DNA of 64,000 nt, from NCBI GenBank assembly GCA_036278635.1, contig DASUKQ010000165.1, positions 4,607-68,606 on the forward strand. The letters run 5' to 3'. Positions 36,632-45,776 of this stretch are shown one piece after another. The notes under the pieces were generated by a model that saw only the letters and a program-made list of their open reading frames with translations, searched no databases and had not been told where the DNA came from. The first letter of the stretch is position 1. Each line of letters begins with the position of its first letter. Position numbers and translations under genes: made by a program. Source of the DNA: Rhodanobacteraceae bacterium. Lineage in GTDB: Bacteria > Pseudomonadota > Gammaproteobacteria > Xanthomonadales > Rhodanobacteraceae.

Positions 36632-36781
36632 CTGGGTCCCGGCTTGCGCCGGGATGACGGCAATTTGACCGCTCGTACGTGATGACACGATTTTACGAAT
36701 CGTGCAGGGATGAAAGAGCTTCGCGAGCTTGCCGCGGAACGACATAAACACTTCGTCATCCCGGCGCAAGCCGGGACCCAG
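36632..36781. repeat. inverted pair of CTGGGTCCCGG-hairpin-CCGGGATGACG ('VIPAQAGIQ'-type) elements upstream of the GIY-YIG gene
   Basis: 36632-36660 ctgggtcccggcttgcgccgggatgacgg and 36754-36781 cgtcatcccggcgcaagccgggacccag are reverse complements of each other. Confidence 0.85.
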
Positions 36782-36805
36782 TGTCTTCATTCGGGAATCG
36801 TTCCC

Positions 36806-37093
36806 ATGCAACCCTGCGCCTACATGCTCGCCAGTCGCCGCAACGGCACGCTGTACGTCGGAGTAACGTCCGATCTGCTCAAACGCGTGCACGAGCACAA
36901 GAGCGGCGCCATCAGCGGATTCACGCGCCGCTACCACGTCCATCAACTGGTCTGGTTTGAAGAACACGCGACCATGGAATCCGCAATTGCACGCGAGAAG
37001 GCCATCAAGGAATGGAAACGCAAGTGGAAGCTCGAATTGATCGAAAAGCAAAACCCGTACTGGCACGATCTGTACGGCGCGCTGTTTGATTGA
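36806..37093 (+). CDS. GIY-YIG nuclease-family protein (UPF0213-like)
   Basis: CAYMLASRRNGTLYVGVTSDLLKRVHEHKSG...VWFEEHATMESAIAREKAIKEWKRKWKLELI carries the GIY...YVG motif, the conserved Arg and the Glu. Confidence 0.85.
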   Translation: MQPCAYMLASRRNGTLYVGVTSDLLKRVHEHKSGAISGFTRRYHVHQLVWFEEHATMESAIAREKAIKEWKRKWKLELIEKQNPYWHDLYGALFD

Positions 37094-37129
37094 GGCCTCG
37101 CTCAATCTTCCAGACGCAGAGGGGGAAGT

Positions 37130-37272
37130 CACTGGCTTCCGGATCGCGACTGCGTCGCGTCCGGAATGACGACAATTCGGCAATTGACGCAAACCTTGCG
37201 GTCCGACTTTGTGCGCGGGCAATAAGGCACTCGTCACTCCGGGCGTCGCAAAGCGACGATCCGGAACCCAGC
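37130..37272. repeat. second inverted pair of the same REP class downstream of the GIY-YIG gene
   Basis: 37130-37172 actggcttccggatcgcgactgcgtcgcgtccggaatgacgac and 37230-37272 ctcgtcactccgggcgtcgcaaagcgacgatccggaacccagc. Confidence 0.75.
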
Positions 37273-37313
37273 AGCCCTGGATTTGGAAAGAACCGGGGCA
37301 ATGCAGAAAGAGG

Positions 37314-38498
37314 TCAAGCGTCAGCCCACACCTTGTGCGCGGGATCGAACTCGACAGTGACGCGCTCTTTGGCACGCGCGCCGAAACCGCACACGCACAA
37401 CGGGCCTTCGGCCATCGGCTCAAGGCCGAACGCCTGCTCGATCTCGACCTCGTTGATCGCGGCGGTGATGAAGGCGCCGAGGTTCATCTCGGTGGCGGTG
37501 AGGTAGAGGTTCTGCGAGATGTGGCCCATCTCCAGCAGGATCGCGCGGTAGATCTTGGGATGGTTGCGGTACTTCCACATCGAACGTGCGAAGCGCGCGG
37601 CCATCACCAGCAGCACCGGCGCATCGGCAAAATAGTCCTGGCCTGCCACCGCCGTCATCGCGAACGCGCGCGCATCGTCGGGCGACAGCGCGCGCAACAA
37701 ATCCAGTGCGTGCGCTTCGACGGTGTAGTGGTACAGCCCCGGCGCCAGGCCTTCCGCCAGCTGCACGACCAGATACGCCTCGGTGGGATGCAGCCCGCCA
37801 CCGGAGGGATGGTTCTTCTTGAGCGCGACCGCGCCGGGTGCAAGTTCTTCCATTCCGCGCACGCCGAACACGCGTTTCAGCAGGGCCGACAACTGCGCCG
37901 CGGAGACCGATTGCGCCAGATCGAAATTGCGGCAGGTCGCGCGGCGTTCCAGCAGATCATCCAGCGGGGTGCGTGCAGGTTCGTCCAGCGCCACGCGCGC
38001 AACAGCGTCCGCACGCCGGTGGAAATGCGGCGGCGGCGGGCCGAACGCCGCGACCATGTCGTCCACCGATTGCGGGCGCGATTCGCGCTGCGTTGCGGTG
38101 CTGTCGTCGTGCGACCAGCGCGAGAAGGCGTGCATCACGGCGCAATCGTCCTGCCAAGCCGCCTCGCGCAGCTGTCGATCGCGTCGTGTGCGCGGGGAGT
38201 CGTCTTCTTCAGCCAGCAGCAGCCCGTTCGCCAGCAGGCGATTGATGGCGGTTTCGCCCCACGCGCCACAGGCCTTCTCCCGCCGCACCCAATCGTCGGC
38301 GCTGACATGAACCAGGACCTGCATCTCCGCGTCATCTATTTCGACCGGATGATCAAGATGCGCCGCAAGAACTTCGACCACGACTTCGCGACCAACCGCT
38401 TCATCCCCAGCAAGCAACGCGGAGAAATCAACCGTCGCGTGTTCCGTCGTTCGAAACCGCAGCGACTGACAGCGACGCAGCCTTGAACCATTCTCCAC
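37314..38498 (-). CDS. SagB-type (nitroreductase-fold, FMN) dehydrogenase; putative peptide-maturation dehydrogenase
   Basis: The C-terminal ~220 aa has nitroreductase/SagB signatures (RRATCRNF, KKNHPSGGGLHPTEAYLVV, GQDYFADAPVLLVMAARFARSMWKYRNHPKIYRAILLEMGHISQNLYL, LGAFITAAINE). The N-terminal ~170 aa is unassigned. I prefer the GTG at 38498, which has CAGGGG 7 nt upstream and leaves a 100-bp divergent spacer. The ORF stays open to the ATG at 38576. Confidence 0.8.
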   Translation of the reverse strand: MENGSRLRRCQSLRFRTTEHATVDFSALLAGDEAVGREVVVEVLAAHLDHPVEIDDAEMQVLVHVSADDWVRREKACGAWGETAINRLLANGLLLAEEDDSPRTRRDRQLREAAWQDDCAVMHAFSRWSHDDSTATQRESRPQSVDDMVAAFGPPPPHFHRRADAVARVALDEPARTPLDDLLERRATCRNFDLAQSVSAAQLSALLKRVFGVRGMEELAPGAVALKKNHPSGGGLHPTEAYLVVQLAEGLAPGLYHYTVEAHALDLLRALSPDDARAFAMTAVAGQDYFADAPVLLVMAARFARSMWKYRNHPKIYRAILLEMGHISQNLYLTATEMNLGAFITAAINEVEIEQAFGLEPMAEGPLCVCGFGARAKERVTVEFDPAHKVWADA

Positions 38499-38598
38499 CG
38501 GTAACCCCTGTCCAGTTGCAAGGTTCGGATATGCTAGCCGCGCCGCAAGCGCAGTACGCATTGTTCGCGGCACCATTCACACCCAAAGGGGCATCGAC

Positions 38599-38856
38599 AT
38601 GATCAAGGGCAAAGTCTCCAGCGAAACCGTCGGCAGGATCCTCGATCGCCTGTCGCAGGATCACGACTTTCGGGAGCACTTCATCGGCGATCCGGCTGGC
38701 GCGCTCAAGCCGTTCGGCATCGAGGTTGACGCCAGCAAGGTTCCCGCCGTGCGACGATTGCCCTCGAAGGATGAGATTGCGAAGGTCCGGGACAAGGCGA
38801 AAGGGATTGACGACCCCATCACGAAAGTTGGGCTTGCCGTTTTCCTGTTGAAGTAG
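38599..38856 (+). CDS. 85-aa NHLP/Nif11-like putative RiPP precursor peptide
   Basis: AAAGGGG lies 8 nt upstream of the ATG. VGRILDRLSQDHDFREHFIGDPAGALKPFGIEV matches the helix-turn signature of Nif11/NHLP-type leaders. The ORF is sandwiched between the dehydrogenase and the cyclase/TPR gene. Confidence 0.7.
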   Translation: MIKGKVSSETVGRILDRLSQDHDFREHFIGDPAGALKPFGIEVDASKVPAVRRLPSKDEIAKVRDKAKGIDDPITKVGLAVFLLK

Positions 38857-38880
38857 GGCCCATCCAGTGCAAACGGCGCA

Positions 38881-41421
38881 TCAATGGACGCTCGACGTCT
38901 CTTGATGCGCCGTGGCTTCCAACGACTGAAGCGCCAGCAAGTTGGGGATCAGTGCCGGTTCGTTTTCCAATTCCGCGATGGCTTGCCCGCGATGCGCCTC
39001 CAACCATTTTGCCTGTTGACGCGCGCCGTCCGCATCCTTGTCGGCCTCGTAGGCCAACATCAAGGCAACGTGGGTCTGGAAGTATTCGTGCCCGTCAACC
39101 AGCTTGGCAAGGCACGCGATTCGATCCTTGAGCGCGCTGATGTACTGCGTTTCGCAATCCGCGGTGTTCCACAGCGCGGCGCGGTCGTAATAACCATGAT
39201 TCAACGCCAGCTCGCGTGAGCTGTCCAGCGCCTTGCGCGCCAGCGCAGGCTGATCGTTGCGTACCGCCAGCATGGCTGCCAGAGCCAGGTGGATCGCGGC
39301 ACTGCCATCGACGGCCGGGCCAGTCTGCGCGATGCGTGTCGACTCGTCATTCACTATGTGCGTCAATTCCAACTTGGCGTCAGTTGTGCCTGTTGAGAAA
39401 TCCAATGCCGCACGTGCCAGCGCGATCCGCGCACGCTGCGGTTTTGCAGTGGCCGGCGCCATGGCTTCGGCCTTGTCAAGCAACCCGCGCGCATCTGCAT
39501 CCCTGCCCTGTTCGACCGCGACGGCCGCAAGACGCACCAGCTTCGCCGCCTCGATCGACGGAGGAATTCGTTTCGGCGCTGCATCAAGACGCGCCAGCAC
39601 CGCTTTGTAGTCCCGCAGCGCGAGATCAAGGCCCACATCCTCGTAATGCGGGGCAAGCATTCCGAGCTTGCGGCCCTGCTCAAGATAGCCTCGCGCCATC
39701 TTGTAATCATTGCGCTCCATTTCGATCATCGCCAGCGAATACCAACTGAGGCCTCGCAGCGGATTGCGCGAGTGCGCAACTGCAAGGAAATGCGGAATCG
39801 CTTCCGAAAGTCTGTGCTCGTACCACCAAAACCCCAAGCCCACATTCTGCTGGGCGCCACTGTCGTCAGGATAGAGCTGTGTCAAAGCCTGCCAGTTGGA
39901 TATCCATTTGTTGGCATCCGCGTACTGGCCGATCGTGGCATCCACGGTCAAGCGTTCGCGCGTGCTCAGGCGGTCGCGATTGGCTTCGGCCTTTTGGAGG
40001 CTTGCGTACGAAGCCGCGGGGTCATTCAGGAATGCGTTTTGCAGGGTTGCCACACGTGCCCAAGCCATCGCGAAATCAGGATCGATGGTGGTCGCCTGCC
40101 GCAGCAATGCCAAAGCTTCATTGATTTTGCCTTGTCCATACGCTGATTCGGCTTCTGCAAAGGCCCGCAACGCGTCGATATTGCTGGTCGTGATCTGCTG
40201 CAGTGGCATCGAGGTCTTCTGGATCGACGCCAACGATTCGCCCAGCCGCGAGCGCAGCTTGCCGAGCAACTTGTCGGTGGCCGGCAGGATCTGTTGCTCA
40301 CCATCGGCCTGGGTGGAATCGCTGTACACGGTGACGCCGGTGTGCGGATCGATCACCTCGGCACTGATCTGGATGCGCCCGCCGACCTGCGCGAGACTGG
40401 GCAGGATCAAAGCGCGCGCGCCTTCGCGCATCGCGACGTCCGCGCCGATGGTGCGGTTGACCGGCGTGCCGACGGGTTTCTCCATGCGCTTTAGCGCATT
40501 GTCCACCTGCATGTCGGGGATCACGTTGACGTACTGCGACTGCTCCAGTCCGATCTTGAACGCGGCGTCCAGCGGCGTGCCGAGCTGTTGCTGGTTGGTG
40601 TGGTTCTGCACGTTGCCAACCACCACCCAGTCGCGCGCGGCAAACGCCAGCGTGGGCGGGCTCTGCAGCAGGAACCACGCGGAGACGCCGATGGCGATCG
40701 CCAGCATCGCCGCTTCGGCAGCCAGCGTCAGCGGCCGCCGCCACCATGGCAACACCCGCTTCGCGGTGCGGCCGGATTTCGGCGCGTGGAGCGGCGCGAG
40801 ACCGACCTCGCCCGCTTCGACGATGGCCAGTGATTCGTGCAGGCCCTTGAAGCGGTAGCGTCCGTGGTTCTTCCATTGCACACGTTCGGCGGCGTCGTGG
40901 CCCAATTCCCCCTCGGCGCGATGCGCGATGCGGGCTGCGGCGGAGGACATCAGGATCTGCTGCGGCCGCGCCAGTTGCGCGAGGCGTGCGGCCACGGGCT
41001 TGACCAGACCTTCCACCTCGGTGGGCTTGGCGCCGCGCGCGACGTCTTCGGGTGCGTTTTCCCAGACGACCACGTCGCCCATGTGAATACCAACGCGCGC
41101 GCGCACCACGACTCCTTCGGCGGCCGAGAGGTGCTTCAGGCCGCGTTGGTAATCCAGCGCGAATGCCGCGGCCTGGATGGGGCGCTCGAACATCAGCAGG
41201 AAACCATCGGTCTTGTCGATCTCGCGGCCATGGTGCTGCTCGATGAGCGCACGCGCGAGGCGGTCGTGCTTGCGGATGATGTTGGCGGCGTTCTGGTCGC
41301 CCATGCGCTCGACCAGCGCGGTGGAATCGGCGATGTCGCACACCACCAGCGTACGCAATTGCGGGGTGGCCATGCGGCCCGGGCCGGGGGTCGTTTCCAG
41401 CTGGTGGATTTCGGCGGTCAT
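38881..41421 (-). CDS. membrane-anchored class III nucleotidyl-cyclase-domain / TPR protein (putative peptide-modification-system cyclase)
   Basis: N-terminal cyclase homology domain (LRTLVVCDIADSTALVERMGD...REIDKTDGFLLMFE...RVGIHMGDVVV), one TM segment (LTLAAEAAMLAIAIGVSAWFLL), then ~580 aa of periplasmic and TPR-like repeats. I prefer the ATG at 41421, with GGAG 9 nt upstream, over the GTG at 41457. Confidence 0.85.
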   Translation of the reverse strand: MTAEIHQLETTPGPGRMATPQLRTLVVCDIADSTALVERMGDQNAANIIRKHDRLARALIEQHHGREIDKTDGFLLMFERPIQAAAFALDYQRGLKHLSAAEGVVVRARVGIHMGDVVVWENAPEDVARGAKPTEVEGLVKPVAARLAQLARPQQILMSSAAARIAHRAEGELGHDAAERVQWKNHGRYRFKGLHESLAIVEAGEVGLAPLHAPKSGRTAKRVLPWWRRPLTLAAEAAMLAIAIGVSAWFLLQSPPTLAFAARDWVVVGNVQNHTNQQQLGTPLDAAFKIGLEQSQYVNVIPDMQVDNALKRMEKPVGTPVNRTIGADVAMREGARALILPSLAQVGGRIQISAEVIDPHTGVTVYSDSTQADGEQQILPATDKLLGKLRSRLGESLASIQKTSMPLQQITTSNIDALRAFAEAESAYGQGKINEALALLRQATTIDPDFAMAWARVATLQNAFLNDPAASYASLQKAEANRDRLSTRERLTVDATIGQYADANKWISNWQALTQLYPDDSGAQQNVGLGFWWYEHRLSEAIPHFLAVAHSRNPLRGLSWYSLAMIEMERNDYKMARGYLEQGRKLGMLAPHYEDVGLDLALRDYKAVLARLDAAPKRIPPSIEAAKLVRLAAVAVEQGRDADARGLLDKAEAMAPATAKPQRARIALARAALDFSTGTTDAKLELTHIVNDESTRIAQTGPAVDGSAAIHLALAAMLAVRNDQPALARKALDSSRELALNHGYYDRAALWNTADCETQYISALKDRIACLAKLVDGHEYFQTHVALMLAYEADKDADGARQQAKWLEAHRGQAIAELENEPALIPNLLALQSLEATAHQETSSVH

Positions 41422-41547
41422 GTTCGCTGCTCCGTTCGCGCTGAGCGTAGCGAGCACAGCGATCGGCGTCCTTCGACTCCGGCCCCGTCTTTTTCAAAGC
41501 CGGGGCCCACGCTCAGGACGAGCGGTTTCTCCATCCGCCCGGAAAAA

Positions 41548-42567
41548 TCAACTCATCACGTGCGCGCCGTCACCGCCGGAACCTTTCACGTGGTACAGCG
41601 CGCAATCGGCCTCGCTGTACCACACCGACCACTCGCCATCCTCGCGGCACAGGCCACCGCCGACGCTGACGGACACCGTGAGGTCCGGCGCGGATTGCGG
41701 AAAGCGCAACCGGCGCACGCCCTCGGCGATGCGCAGGGCGCGCTCGGCCAGTTCGCGCTGGTCGTGGACCTGGGTGAGCAGTGCGAACTCGTCGCCACCC
41801 AGCCTGCACGGCAGGTCGGTCGCGCCGGCAGCGTCCTGGATTTCCGCCGCGATCGCGCGCAGCACCTCGTCGCCGGTCAGGTGACCGCTGGTGTCGTTGA
41901 TCTGCTTGAAATGGTCGATGTCGATCAGCAGCAACCCGAAGCGGTGGTGGCGGTCGCGCATCTCGGGCGCTTTCTCGAGCAACTGGTAGAGGCCGCGCCG
42001 ATTGCTCAACCCCGTCAGGTCGTCGGTACAAACCTGGTGGCGCGCCAGTTGCAACTGGTCGCGCGTCTGCCGCAGCGAGTCCAGGGTCTGCATCAGGTCT
42101 TCGTTGCGACGCTTGTAATTGGCAATCAACTGCCTCTCGCTGGCGACCAGATAGGTAAACGAGCGCAACATGAAATGTGCCATCTGCAACGGTTCGCGCC
42201 GCAGCAGGTCCTCGAAGGCATCCGGATCGATCAGGTGCACGACGCTCGGCTCGGCAGCGAGGGCGCTACCGGAACGTGCATGGTTGCCGACGAACAACGC
42301 CAGCTCACCGAAGTATTCGTCGGGACCGATCAACTTGTCGGGCAGGTCGCCGGCGAATTCGAGCAGCACGCGTCCGGACTCAATCACGAACATGCTGCGC
42401 CCGTATTCGCCGCGCCGGAACACGGCGCGACCTGCGTCCAGTTCCACGCGCCGTCCGGCGCCGGCGAACAACGCCATTTCTTCGGCCGACAGCTGCCGCG
42501 GCAGGCGCCCCAGCCTGGGCGCCTCGGGTTCCGGTTCCGAGAAAACTGCTGAAGCATCACTGGACAC
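41548..42567 (-). CDS. cyclic-nucleotide-binding domain / GGDEF diguanylate cyclase
   Basis: cNMP-binding fold (VFRRGEYGRSMFVIESGRVLLEF...DEYFGELALFVGNHARSGSALAA) followed by GGDEF (DDLTGLSNRRGL...LLLIDIDHFKQINDTSGHLTGDEVL...RLGGDEFALL). Start reassigned to the GTG at 42567, after GGGAGGGGGG. The upstream part of the 582-aa ORF overlaps aceA out of frame. Confidence 0.85.
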   Translation of the reverse strand: MSSDASAVFSEPEPEAPRLGRLPRQLSAEEMALFAGAGRRVELDAGRAVFRRGEYGRSMFVIESGRVLLEFAGDLPDKLIGPDEYFGELALFVGNHARSGSALAAEPSVVHLIDPDAFEDLLRREPLQMAHFMLRSFTYLVASERQLIANYKRRNEDLMQTLDSLRQTRDQLQLARHQVCTDDLTGLSNRRGLYQLLEKAPEMRDRHHRFGLLLIDIDHFKQINDTSGHLTGDEVLRAIAAEIQDAAGATDLPCRLGGDEFALLTQVHDQRELAERALRIAEGVRRLRFPQSAPDLTVSVSVGGGLCREDGEWSVWYSEADCALYHVKGSGGDGAHVMS

Positions 42568-42817
42568 GACCACCCCCCTCCCGTCCACCGGATCATACCG
42601 CAGTGTGGAAGCCACCGCAGGTGAGCGGCTGCGGCCCGTCCATCGAGCACAACGGTTGTCCGCGGGGTGGTCGGAAACGCTGGTCGACCCGCGCGATACC
42701 CGTCTCCCCGGCGAAACCCGCAGGCGCGCGTCTTGCGGTCGGACATCGCGTCCGGAAGCCCGCGGCGTCGCGGACAGGTCCTTCGCGATTGCGGGATGAC
42801 GGGTGGATCGGGTCGCG

Positions 42818-44116
<1,299 letters not shown>

Positions 44117-44174
44117 CGGGATTCTCCGTGTAGAGTGCAACCTGTGGATCCCGGGCTGCGCCGGGACGACGAGT

Positions 44175-45776
44175 TCAGATTTGCTCGTAGGCGGGCAGGG
44201 TCAGGAAATCGGCCAGGGTCGACGCGCCGACCAGTTCGCCCAACAACACCGCGGCGGCGGCGGCGCGCTCCGCACCCGGCAGCGTGCTTTCGTGCAGCAC
44301 GTGGACGGCCGTGGTCAACGCGCGCTTGAACCGTGTCGGCGTGATCGGAGCACCGTCGTCGAAGGCGAGCCCGCCGTCATGATGCAGCCAGCACCACAAC
44401 TGGGTGCGCGCGATCTCGGCGGTTGCGGCGTCTTCCATCAGGTGGTGGATCGGCACGCAACCCATCCCCGACAACCACGCCGCGGTGTAGCGCAATGCGA
44501 CTTCGACGTTGTTGTCGAAGCCCGCGTGGGTGATGCTGCCGCCACACGGCGCGATCAACATGTCGCGGGTGACGTGCACGTCGGAGCGCTCGACGTGCAA
44601 CTGGTTCGGGGTCGGCATGTGACGGTCGAAGACCTCGCGCGCGACTGCGACCAGCGCCGGATGCGCGACCCAGGTGCCGTCGTGGCCGTCCTCCACTTCG
44701 CGCAGCTTGTCGGCGCGGACCTTGGCGAGGGCTGCCTCGTTGGCCGCCGCGTCGCCCTTGATCGGAACCTGCGCGGCCATGCCGCCCATCGCGAAGGCGC
44801 CCCGCCGGTGGCAGGTCTTGACCAGGTAGCGCGAATAATTGCGCAGGAACGGCACCGTCATCGTCACCTGGCCGCGCTCGGGCAACACGCGGTCGGGGTG
44901 CGCACGCAGGGTTTTCAGATACGAGAAGATGTAGTCCCAGCGTCCGCAGTTGAGTCCGACCGCGCGCCGCCGCAGCGCGTACAGGATCTCGTCCATCTGG
45001 AACGCCGCGGGCAGGGTTTCGATCAGGACCGTGGTCCTGAACGTGCCGCGCGCGAGCCCGAGTTCGCGCTCGACATGCGCCATCACGTCCTCCCACAGCG
45101 CGGCCTCTTCCATCGACTGCAGTTTCGGCAGGTAGAAGTACGGGCCGAGATCCTTCGCCGCCAGCGCCCGCGCGTTGTGGAACGCGAACAGGGCGAAGTC
45201 GAACAGCGCGCCGGACAGCGGCTCGCCATCCACGCGAACGTGGTTTTCCGGAAGGTGCCAGCCGCGCGGGCGCACCATCAGCACCGCAATCCGAGGGTCG
45301 AGGCGGTACACGCGGCCGTCGTCGGCACGATGTTCGATGGTGCCGGCGACCGCGTCGCGCAGGTTGACCTGCCCGTCGAGCAGGTTGGTCCAGGTCGGGG
45401 TGGTGGAATCCTCGAAGTCGGCCATGAATACGTTGGCGCCGGAGTTCAGCGCGTTGATCACCATCTTGCGATCGACCGGCCCGGTGATCTCGACGCGGCG
45501 GTCGGCCAGCGCGGCCGGGATCGGCGCGACCGCCCATTCGGCCTGGCGGATCGCCCGGGTATCGGGGCGAAAATCGGGCAACCCGCCCTGGTCGTAGCGT
45601 GTTTGCAACCTGGCCCGTTCGGCCATCAGCGCCTGGCGCCGCGGTTCGAAGAGGCGGTGCAGGTCGACCAGCAGCGCCAGGACCCCGTCACCGAGCACCG
45701 CCTCGTGCTCCGCATGCGGCAGATCCCAAACCTCGATCTCCGTGTTTTCCTGCAAGGCTTCCATCGGTACGGCCAT
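44175..45776 (-). CDS. aceB: malate synthase A
   Basis: ...[35 protein letters not shown]...RPRGWHL...; 533 aa. Confidence 0.93.

Follow-up and report, generated by a model that had tools for sequence, protein, structure and literature searches.

What does a small gene on the plus strand do between two larger genes, for a SagB-type dehydrogenase and a nucleotide cyclase, that both lie on the minus strand? The question is raised by a locus in a 64,000-nucleotide stretch of DNA from a Rhodanobacteraceae bacterium (GenBank assembly GCA_036278635.1, contig DASUKQ010000165.1; hereafter, the window), where the small gene encodes a peptide of 85 amino acids. An earlier note, made from the sequence alone, had described this peptide as an atypical precursor and had proposed that it could be a ligand or substrate recognized by one of its two neighbors. 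In general terms, our answer has two parts. (i) The peptide is an ordinary, correctly annotated member of a curated, experimentally untouched family (TIGR04509), in which the oddities that had been flagged are typical. (ii) It sits on the strand opposite to its partners in a conserved locus of four genes, predicted to encode a diguanylate cyclase that binds cyclic GMP (cGMP), a guanylate cyclase, the peptide, and the dehydrogenase, for which we favor, with moderate confidence, a model where the guanylate cyclase is tuned by the product of an oxidation that the dehydrogenase carries out on the peptide tail.

The open reading frame (ORF) of the peptide is almost certainly a genuine gene and a member of TIGR04509. 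Its translation is identical to that given in the earlier note, and the composition had also been counted correctly: Cys is absent, and of the five Ser and two Thr, three (S46, S56, and T75) fall in the C-terminal half, with no Cys, Ser, or Thr in the tail after T75. The peptide scores 50.6 bits against TIGR04509 (E 1.5e-13; curated NCBIfam cut-off 34), and an identical protein is present in NCBI, from a Rhodanobacteraceae metagenome-assembled genome, under the name ‘NHLP-related RiPP peptide’ (RiPP: a peptide synthesized by ribosomes and modified post-translationally). We searched all six frames of 79 genomic loci around dehydrogenase relatives with an iterated peptide profile, obtaining 107 peptide genes in the fetched loci, i.e., 108 with the window’s own. 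A small ORF is conserved at the equivalent position in every related locus (~80 loci in two phyla), which disposes of the possibility, raised in the earlier note, that homologous loci lack one. Comparison with five orthologues indicates purifying selection in the peptide frame (dN/dS 0.12–0.38), and differences between the genes are distributed over the three codon positions as 0.42/0.30/0.59, with third positions changing most. A Shine–Dalgarno-like site precedes the start codon (Table 1), and GGGG/GGAG-rich sites occupy the equivalent place in orthologous spacers. All of this bears on whether the ORF might have arisen by chance in GC-rich DNA, or whether the true gene might be the antisense ORF 38428..38679(−), considered in the earlier note as a potentially better-conserved frame. 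Spurious long ORFs are indeed frequent in a window of 67% GC, and the gene caller of the Joint Genome Institute (JGI) erred nearby, shortening the dehydrogenase gene and calling a 59-residue ORF. Given that the peptide ORF exceeds the curated family cut-off, is conserved in two phyla under purifying selection, and has a ribosome-binding site, while the antisense ORF matches no family, there is virtually no chance that the peptide gene is spurious, and this alternative is already effectively refuted. The peptide gene has a GC content of 58.9%, compared to 63.7% for the cassette and 66.7% for the window.

Seen within its family, the peptide loses most of its peculiarity. Cys is absent altogether from 16 of the 108 peptides and from the last 35 residues of 53; a GG dipeptide is found anywhere in only 12; and all 108 peptide genes are antiparallel to their own dehydrogenase gene, as the earlier note had suggested checking. 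Thus, lack of Cys, lack of GG, and antiparallel placement are common TIGR04509 traits, and ‘atypical’ is not a fitting description. The claimed absence of a GG or GA site stands insofar as the peptide has no GG and no cleavage site at the leader/core boundary, but a literal GA is present at residues 34–35, within the conserved ‘GDPxxAL’ helix, which belongs to the leader-like domain, and away from that boundary. Which half is conserved, another question left by the earlier note, has a clear answer: residues 1 to ~66 are conserved family-wide, and the tail is specific to each subfamily. Among 29 relatives of the window’s short-tailed subfamily (‘type A’), a strongly conserved segment, LDRL..D..FRE..LGDP..AL...G..VD...PAVRxLP, is followed by variable residues 57–76 and then by a semi-conserved hydrophobic C-terminal motif, [VLS]-[G/C]-[LIM]-x-[VIFW]-F-[LIV]-[LV], with Gly or Cys at position 78 and Phe82, the best-conserved tail residue of the subfamily, in 27 of 29 (93%). 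Across the family, the tail is collinear yet subtype-specific; for instance, the prototype Xanthomonas-type members (…NHTVIFAFESE…) continue for ~12 residues past the hydrophobic …VGLAVFLLK end of the window peptide. Along the same lines, the match of the window peptide to TIGR04509 covers only profile positions 2–67 of 87, its tail being shorter, divergent, and more hydrophobic, whereas the Xanthomonas campestris member matches positions 1–86 with 113.6 bits. A library of 1.84 billion representative proteins contained 147 relatives, most of which match up to position ~60–68, and 17 match beyond position 80.

The predicted structure follows the same division. The AlphaFold2 (AF2) model of the peptide has confident helices at residues 8–20, 22–30, 32–39, and 57–67, and the last 18 residues have a predicted local distance difference test score (pLDDT) of 46–58. 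Foldseek returned a coherent, although not significant, set of top matches, with Os1348 first among them and the others being a proteusin precursor and the N-terminal part of nitrile hydratase α, and a profile-to-PDB search found Os1348/PosA (6lk7, E 0.012) as the sole sequence relative. In some loci, tandem paralogues have unlike tails (e.g., five in Kribbella, L041). Judged from alignment and model, the peptide fits a pattern of structured leader and variable core and is less unlike a precursor than first thought. Several proteins in the library (P0278 with 236 amino acids, P0282 with 351, P0263, P0300, P0322, and P0378) contain two to four tandem NHLP-like domains per chain, and may represent either precursor fusions or gene calls run together. 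Lys or Arg is often found directly before the type A hydrophobic tail, at residue 76 (…TK/VGLAVFLLK, …GR/VGLAFFLLST, …DK/SCIAVFIVIGAK, with the slash after residue 76), a speculative candidate cleavage point that would free a hydrophobic peptide of 9–12 residues.

How this compares with characterized precursors narrows the question of what is done to the peptide. Classical NHLP precursors have a Gly-Gly motif ending the conserved region, followed by a core rich in Cys, Ser, or Thr (Haft et al. 2010, PMC2887384). The earlier note had set the window peptide apart from these and from Nif11 precursors, rightly so: it scores 19.1 bits against TIGR03793, the classical NHLP leader model (cut-off 50.9), lacks both the Gly-Gly boundary and a Cys/Ser/Thr-rich core, and has no partner among C39 peptidase-domain ABC exporters, none of which was found within 8 kb on either side or conserved across loci. 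The further suggestion that the peptide is not organized as leader plus core did not survive, because a leader-like domain and a variable tail are both present. Like classical NHLP/Nif11 precursors, it has an N-terminal helical domain distantly related to the start of nitrile hydratase α followed by a variable C-terminal region, and, as in those systems and in thiazole/oxazole-modified microcins (TOMMs), a SagB-type dehydrogenase is its partner; unlike them, it is opposite in strand to its enzymes. A closer parallel is the Os1348/PosA system of Pseudomonas, in which an NHLP-clan precursor of ~85 amino acids without a double-Gly site is accompanied by a SagB-type nitroreductase (PMC7726476; PMC12636437). 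It is from this system that the chemistry is known: the YcaO-independent nitroreductase domain of PflD turns Phe into Z-dehydro-Phe, and its NHLP-clan substrate has neither a double-Gly site nor a protease in its cluster (2025 preprint, PMC12636437). The Os1348/PosA–PflA clusters and the window share the absence of YcaO, and Os1348 is the closest solved relative of the peptide. The window peptide is related to, but not a member of, the Os1348 family (NF038399; 38.7 bits, below the cut-off of 40). Unlike those clusters, the window locus lacks GNAT genes, HEXXH genes, and an MNIO fusion, and neither a Gln run nor an ARMD motif is present in the peptide tail; moreover, genes in Pseudomonas Os1348 clusters are co-directional and include no cyclase or GGDEF gene, whereas the window has both, with the peptide antiparallel (PMC7726476).

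The dehydrogenase is the likely enzyme acting on the peptide. Its full ORF spans 37314..38576(−), and GTG 38498 is the preferred start because homologues are 391–400 amino acids long and their invariant R8 R9, together with a near-invariant C10, align with this start. The protein scores 475.7 bits against TIGR04511, a family named ‘putative peptide maturation dehydrogenase’, above the curated cut-off. Residues ~165–375 form an azoline-oxidase-type nitroreductase domain, PDB sequence matches include ThcOx/CyaGox, BmdC, and McbC, and Foldseek aligned the AF2 model with ThcOx over its entire length (E ~1e-15, ~406 columns) and also retrieved the cyclodipeptide oxidase AlbAB. The first 115 residues are confidently modeled as a β3α3 domain resembling a RiPP recognition element (RRE), which, with the full-length ThcOx match, agrees with the earlier note’s proposal that the N-terminal domain of the SagB-type protein recognizes the peptide. 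No YcaO cyclodehydratase was found in the cassette or conserved across loci, so that azole formation is unlikely; TOMM biosynthesis requires both this enzyme and a heterocyclizable core, whereas the window has the dehydrogenase only and a tail that offers nothing to heterocyclize after T75. W308 K309 Y310 R311 are invariant in the dehydrogenase, and we take a WKYR-type Lys-Tyr motif to be a mark of TOMM dehydrogenases, although a literature search for the motif returned nothing usable. JGI gene calls on identical contigs shorten the dehydrogenase to 336 amino acids (37314-38324(−); 6716-7726 in L080) and place the 59-residue ORF opposite its 5′ part (38307-38486(+); 7709-7888 in L080); given the length of the homologues, both are probably annotation artefacts.

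The arrangement of the genes is as invariant as their content. Strands and spacing in the window are those that the earlier note had read (Table 1), and ~70 loci share the order cyclase(+)/peptide(−)/dehydrogenase(+), which is seen wherever the sequence suffices, with three peptide subtypes. All three window proteins score above the cut-offs of the TIGR04509/TIGR04510/TIGR04511 cassette, and gene order and strands match those of other member loci; the protein names given by NCBI and JGI agree with this membership. Tandem double cassettes were found in about 14 genomes, and each peptide–dehydrogenase pair in them has its own cyclase paralogue; as far as gene content can tell, this argues for a specific relationship between peptide and cyclase. 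In these loci (L002, L009, L010, L012, L013, L018, L021, L045, L052, L053, L057, L059, L060, and L077), the first copy usually encodes a Cys-containing ‘type B’ peptide of ~95 residues, the second a peptide of ‘type A’ like that of the window, and one GGDEF gene lies upstream of both copies where upstream sequence exists; the window has one cassette. As the three-gene cassette is inherited as a unit, a correlation between peptide tails and partner domains is expected under every model. A different arrangement is seen in Actinobacteria, i.e., Kribbella antibiotica (L041, 5055-6832), Kitasatospora, and Streptomyces (L067, L073), where one to five tandem TIGR04509 genes face away from a TIGR04511 dehydrogenase gene, again antiparallel. 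ATP-grasp partners, which the literature on the Pfam family ‘Frankia_peptide’ had led us to expect, are absent from all three loci. Transporters that look MFS-type (major facilitator superfamily), judged on N-terminal sequence alone, adjoin two of the three. By gene content, these loci show that the peptide–dehydrogenase pair would be a self-sufficient module, apparently coupled to cGMP signaling by the Lysobacterales.

These data invite another explanation, in which the peptide is a conventional secreted RiPP, such as an antimicrobial, and the cyclase–TPR protein is a maturation or scaffold enzyme, perhaps nucleotidylating or holding the peptide, with any link to cGMP incidental. The curated family names imply it, the actinobacterial pair does stand alone and sometimes beside MFS-type transporters, the related Os1348 cluster has a part in antibiotic activity, and a separate cyclase paralogue for each cassette would suit enzyme–substrate specificity equally well. 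What makes this explanation decidedly improbable is the cyclase itself and the company it keeps.

The cyclase starts at GTG 41457 (858 amino acids) or ATG 41421 (846 amino acids) and scores 757.7 bits against TIGR04510, above the curated cut-off. In the 858-residue numbering, it consists of a cyclase domain (~30–230), a transmembrane (TM) helix (~245–267), a segment resembling TolB_N/LpoB, which is a weak assignment (E 0.011, below threshold), and TPR repeats. The cyclase domain aligns with the Ma1120 cyclase, with both metal-binding Asp present. Over 817 amino acids, the protein is 38% identical (E 4e-148) to an 886-residue X. campestris protein (P0147) that NCBI also names ‘putative peptide modification system cyclase’ and that carries D41/D71/L73/A150/L157/A161, exactly as published for XC_0250. 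The window equivalents of these six residues are D54, D84, F86, A163, M170, and A174; four are identical, including the metal-binding Asp and the A150 and A161 equivalents, and two are conservative hydrophobic replacements, Phe for L73 and Met for L157. Among 51 cyclase homologues, Phe occurs at the L73 position more often than any other residue.

In X. campestris, the 886-residue protein XC_0250, a class III cyclase with TPR repeats, synthesizes cGMP in vitro, and cellular cGMP, biofilm formation, and full virulence depend on it; XC_0249 is a diguanylate cyclase that cGMP activates (PMC3770947). This pair recurs in the window, where a class III cyclase with TPR repeats (~850–890 amino acids in these proteins) stands beside a protein with cyclic nucleotide monophosphate (cNMP)-binding and GGDEF domains, in the same synteny; the activities are those shown for the X. 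campestris proteins. The GGDEF gene lies directly upstream of the cyclase gene, in the same direction, and 37 of the 41 loci that could be assessed have a homologue immediately upstream of their first cyclase. Its product has as best PDB match the 129-residue cNMP-binding domain of a diguanylate cyclase (5h5o, E 1e-25). In the alignment with 5h5o, N145 of the guanine-contacting N145/E146 diad is read as Ser (‘VASERQ’ versus ‘VNNEQL’), which might alter nucleotide preference. The gene order LysR, malate synthase, isocitrate lyase, cNMP-GGDEF, cyclase, peptide, and nitroreductase is common to X. campestris and the window. In X. campestris, the 112-residue minus-strand gene, which overlaps the cyclase end by 61 nucleotides, encodes the full-length TIGR04509 member mentioned above, and the 398-residue nitroreductase is TIGR04511. 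Look-ups from the cyclase in Stenotrophomonas and Lysobacter returned the identical four genes. The window locus is, very probably, orthologous to XC_0249/XC_0250. It lies directly downstream of glyoxylate-shunt genes (malate synthase and isocitrate lyase, 42818-45776(−)) with LysR beyond, a neighborhood common to Rhodanobacteraceae, Xanthomonas, Stenotrophomonas, and Lysobacter (L083, L085, L086) that is old and stable. On the other side, a 127-residue gene of the GIY-YIG nuclease family, 36710-37093(+), is found between comM and the dehydrogenase gene, and elsewhere it is outside the conserved cassette. The article on XC_0250 (An et al. 2013) describes its TPR part as a domain of uncharacterized function, mentions no transmembrane segment, and leaves the peptide and dehydrogenase genes unmentioned (PMC3770947). 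We searched the literature and found no paper joining the TIGR peptide-modification cassette with the XC_0250/XC_0249 cGMP pathway. That the X. campestris member makes cGMP in vitro from its isolated cyclase domain and is needed for cGMP in cells, and that a gene for a cGMP-binding GGDEF protein is linked in most loci, is hard to reconcile with a mere maturation enzyme for a secreted RiPP.

The topology of the cyclase points the same way. A TM helix is present in 51 of 51 full-length homologues, with a mean Kyte–Doolittle value of 1.7–2.7 over 19 residues and WWRRP just before it. This conserved helix predicts that the cyclase domain is cytoplasmic and that the C-terminal region of ~600 residues, including the TPR repeats, is probably periplasmic. 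Two domains on opposite sides of the membrane would be awkward in a single cytoplasmic maturation enzyme. The same prediction affects the suggestion in the earlier note that the peptide is a ligand of the TPR repeats, which needs amending: beyond the membrane, the repeats would be out of reach of a cytoplasmic peptide, so that a peptide ligand would need export. An all-against-all clustering of flanking ORFs found no exporter, protease, or immunity gene conserved near the cassette; only synteny genes, e.g., comM and malate synthase, recur. A secreted antimicrobial fits this poorly too.

The absence of export genes is easier to accommodate if the 85-residue protein remains unprocessed in the cytoplasm and, oxidized or not, serves the cytoplasmic domain of the cyclase, or the GGDEF protein, as an adaptor or redox regulator. 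The entire length of the peptide is conserved within its subfamily, most of the chain is predicted to be folded, neither a cleavage motif nor a protease or exporter is present, and the related Os1348 is found full-length in cells and as a dimer in crystals. We nevertheless consider a resident regulator unlikely, if a little less so than a secreted RiPP, as the tail is variable family-wide and differs between tandem paralogues, a behavior that resembles a core and not a protein–protein interface, and the TPR repeats, the sole large region for ligand binding in the cyclase, are predicted to lie outside the cytoplasm.

Table 1. Features of the peptide locus in the window (positions are those of the 64,000-nucleotide stretch; a period marks features without strand).
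Feature	Position	Strand	Description
SagB-type FMN dehydrogenase	37314..38498	−	394 amino acids from GTG 38498, TIGR04511
Divergent spacer between peptide and dehydrogenase starts	38499..38598	.	100 bp
Shine–Dalgarno-like AAAGGGG	38585-38591	+	7 nucleotides 5′ of the peptide ATG, read from sequence
Peptide gene	38599..38856	+	85 amino acids, TIGR04509 ‘NHLP-related RiPP peptide’, short-tailed subfamily ‘type A’
NHLP-like helical domain of the peptide	38599-38799	+	residues 1 to ~67
Flexible peptide tail with hydrophobic VGLAVFLLK end	38800-38853	+	residues 68–85
Convergent gap between peptide and cyclase stop codons	38857..38880	.	24 bp, read from sequence
GC-rich hairpin	38873..38913	.	12-bp outer and 5-bp inner stem; covers cyclase stop and last ~10 codons
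Membrane-anchored class III nucleotide cyclase	38881..41457	−	TIGR04510 ‘putative peptide modification system cyclase’
cNMP-binding and GGDEF diguanylate cyclase	41548..42573	−	341 amino acids, PF00027 and PF00990, XC_0249 counterpart

We can now formulate the favored model, oxidation of the peptide tail followed by tuning of the guanylate cyclase, as a series of steps. (i) Expression: a promoter of its own, located in the ~100-bp region that diverges toward the dehydrogenase, would drive the peptide gene, as the gene layout suggests. (ii) Recognition: by analogy of folds, the N-terminal NHLP-like domain may dock on the RRE-like domain found at the N-terminus of the dehydrogenase. (iii) Modification: the nitroreductase domain would take two hydrogens from the flexible tail; because there is no YcaO cyclodehydratase, α,β-dehydrogenation is the most likely outcome, by analogy with PflD. 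(iv) Signaling: the modified peptide, or its freed hydrophobic tail, may modulate the paired guanylate cyclase, probably via the periplasmic TPR repeats after export, which would set cGMP and, via the neighboring GGDEF protein, cyclic di-GMP (c-di-GMP). The steps from cGMP to c-di-GMP are experimental in the Xanthomonas counterparts, and the link from peptide to cyclase is suggested by conserved gene linkage alone. The confidence that these parts deserve is uneven: that the peptide is the substrate of the dehydrogenase is likely, as said above; that it controls the cyclase is a tentative proposal, somewhat short of an even chance. The most specific version, in which the oxidized peptide is the missing input of an XC_0250-type receptor guanylate cyclase, is sensed by the periplasmic TPR repeats, and drives the cascade from cGMP to c-di-GMP, with the head-on gene arrangement as part of a signal/receptor switch, is attractive but rather doubtful.

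Several findings weigh against this model. The chief weakness of a ligand role is the lack of a conserved exporter or protease nearby, although the TPR repeats are predicted to be periplasmic. The isolated cyclase domain of XC_0250 is active alone in vitro (PMC3770947), so the peptide is dispensable for catalysis. The actinobacterial pair occurs without a cyclase or GGDEF gene (L041, L067, L073), and the peptide and dehydrogenase can thus work independently of cGMP signaling. Phe82 was rejected as a family-wide modification site: it is confined to type A and part of another subfamily, the Xanthomonas type, with Pro or other residues in its place elsewhere, and the target residue is therefore uncertain. 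The fold match to NHLP-type structures is not significant (best Foldseek E 0.31), and a consensus scan of 37200-41700 identified no convincing sigma-70 promoter or terminator. Finally, in the literature searched by family accessions and names, we found no paper on TIGR04509, TIGR04510, or TIGR04511, which are computationally defined families, and no report of modification, cleavage, export, or binding for any TIGR04509 or TIGR04511 member.

A separate question is why the peptide gene should be inverted at all. Being on the other strand, it needs its own promoter, as the earlier note had pointed out, and the divergent spacer presumably holds the promoters of both the peptide and the dehydrogenase. 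The motif GATATGCTA is common to the window and the four closest loci (L001–L004), 68–77 nucleotides upstream of the peptide ATG, and the TATGCT within it, at 38530-38535, is a candidate −10-like element only; the only plus-strand promoter-like match in the scanned region overlaps the peptide start codon. At the other end of the gene, the median distance between the two stop codons is 8 bp across the family, with overlap at about 30 of 81 junctions, so the 3′ ends of the two mRNAs must overlap. The same scan found no terminator-like site on the minus strand between cyclase and dehydrogenase. In the window, the hairpin at 38873-38913 folds more stably than its shuffles (z = −3.6 on the plus strand and −4.5 on the minus strand) and may serve as a transcript-end or stabilizing element for one or both convergent mRNAs. 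A second, weaker hairpin (38829-38862) covers the peptide stop codon. A bidirectional terminator hairpin was rejected as a family feature, since junctions are no more structured than random windows of the same locus (Mann–Whitney p = 0.998), and an Rfam search of 37000-42800 returned no match.

The earlier note had proposed that head-on transcription could give regulation by antisense or transcriptional interference. In its strongest form, orientation would be mainly regulatory, antisense RNA or collision of RNA polymerases making expression of the peptide and of the cyclase and dehydrogenase mutually exclusive, an idea compatible with any of the functional models discussed here. Antiparallel placement without exception, stop codons so close or overlapping (by as much as 61 nucleotides in X. 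campestris), and the missing minus-strand terminator-like site all agree with it, and antisense or collision control of peptide and cyclase is, from the sequence, a plausible fit to the invariant orientation. As the principal reason for the arrangement, it is still on the unlikely side: no conserved promoter could be defined, the window hairpin could end or stabilize both transcripts with only ~40 nucleotides of overlap, and the tight packing could merely reflect inheritance of an ancient cassette. In our favored model, the antiparallel placement probably sets the expression of the peptide and that of the cyclase operon separately, perhaps antagonistically.

Precedents for such a layout exist in Firmicutes. 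In RRNPP peptide pheromone systems, a small gene for a hydrophobic peptide lies next to, and convergent with, the gene of a TPR-type sensor, and in the prgQ/prgX pair of pCF10, convergent transcription itself forms the switch. RRNPP receptors are cytoplasmic transcription factors whose peptides are re-imported, whereas in the window locus the TPR repeats probably face the periplasm and a nucleotide cyclase provides the output; the likeness is thus a functional analogy only, with no sequence relationship.

The value of the peptide lies in its context, which joins a computationally defined ‘peptide modification system’ to a bacterial cGMP pathway that is among the few established by experiment. 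The peptide and dehydrogenase genes immediately downstream of the cyclase gene in Xanthomonas, Stenotrophomonas, Lysobacter, Dokdonella, and Rhodanobacteraceae provide a concrete candidate for the input of the guanylate cyclase. The pairing of one peptide with one enzyme also offers a simpler second system for YcaO-independent SagB-type dehydrogenases and their recently discovered dehydro-amino acid chemistry. If the proposed link between peptide and cyclase is true, the modified peptide would be the first RiPP-type autoinducer tied to cyclic-nucleotide signaling in Gram-negative bacteria, and would drive a cascade that controls biofilm formation and, in Xanthomonas, virulence.

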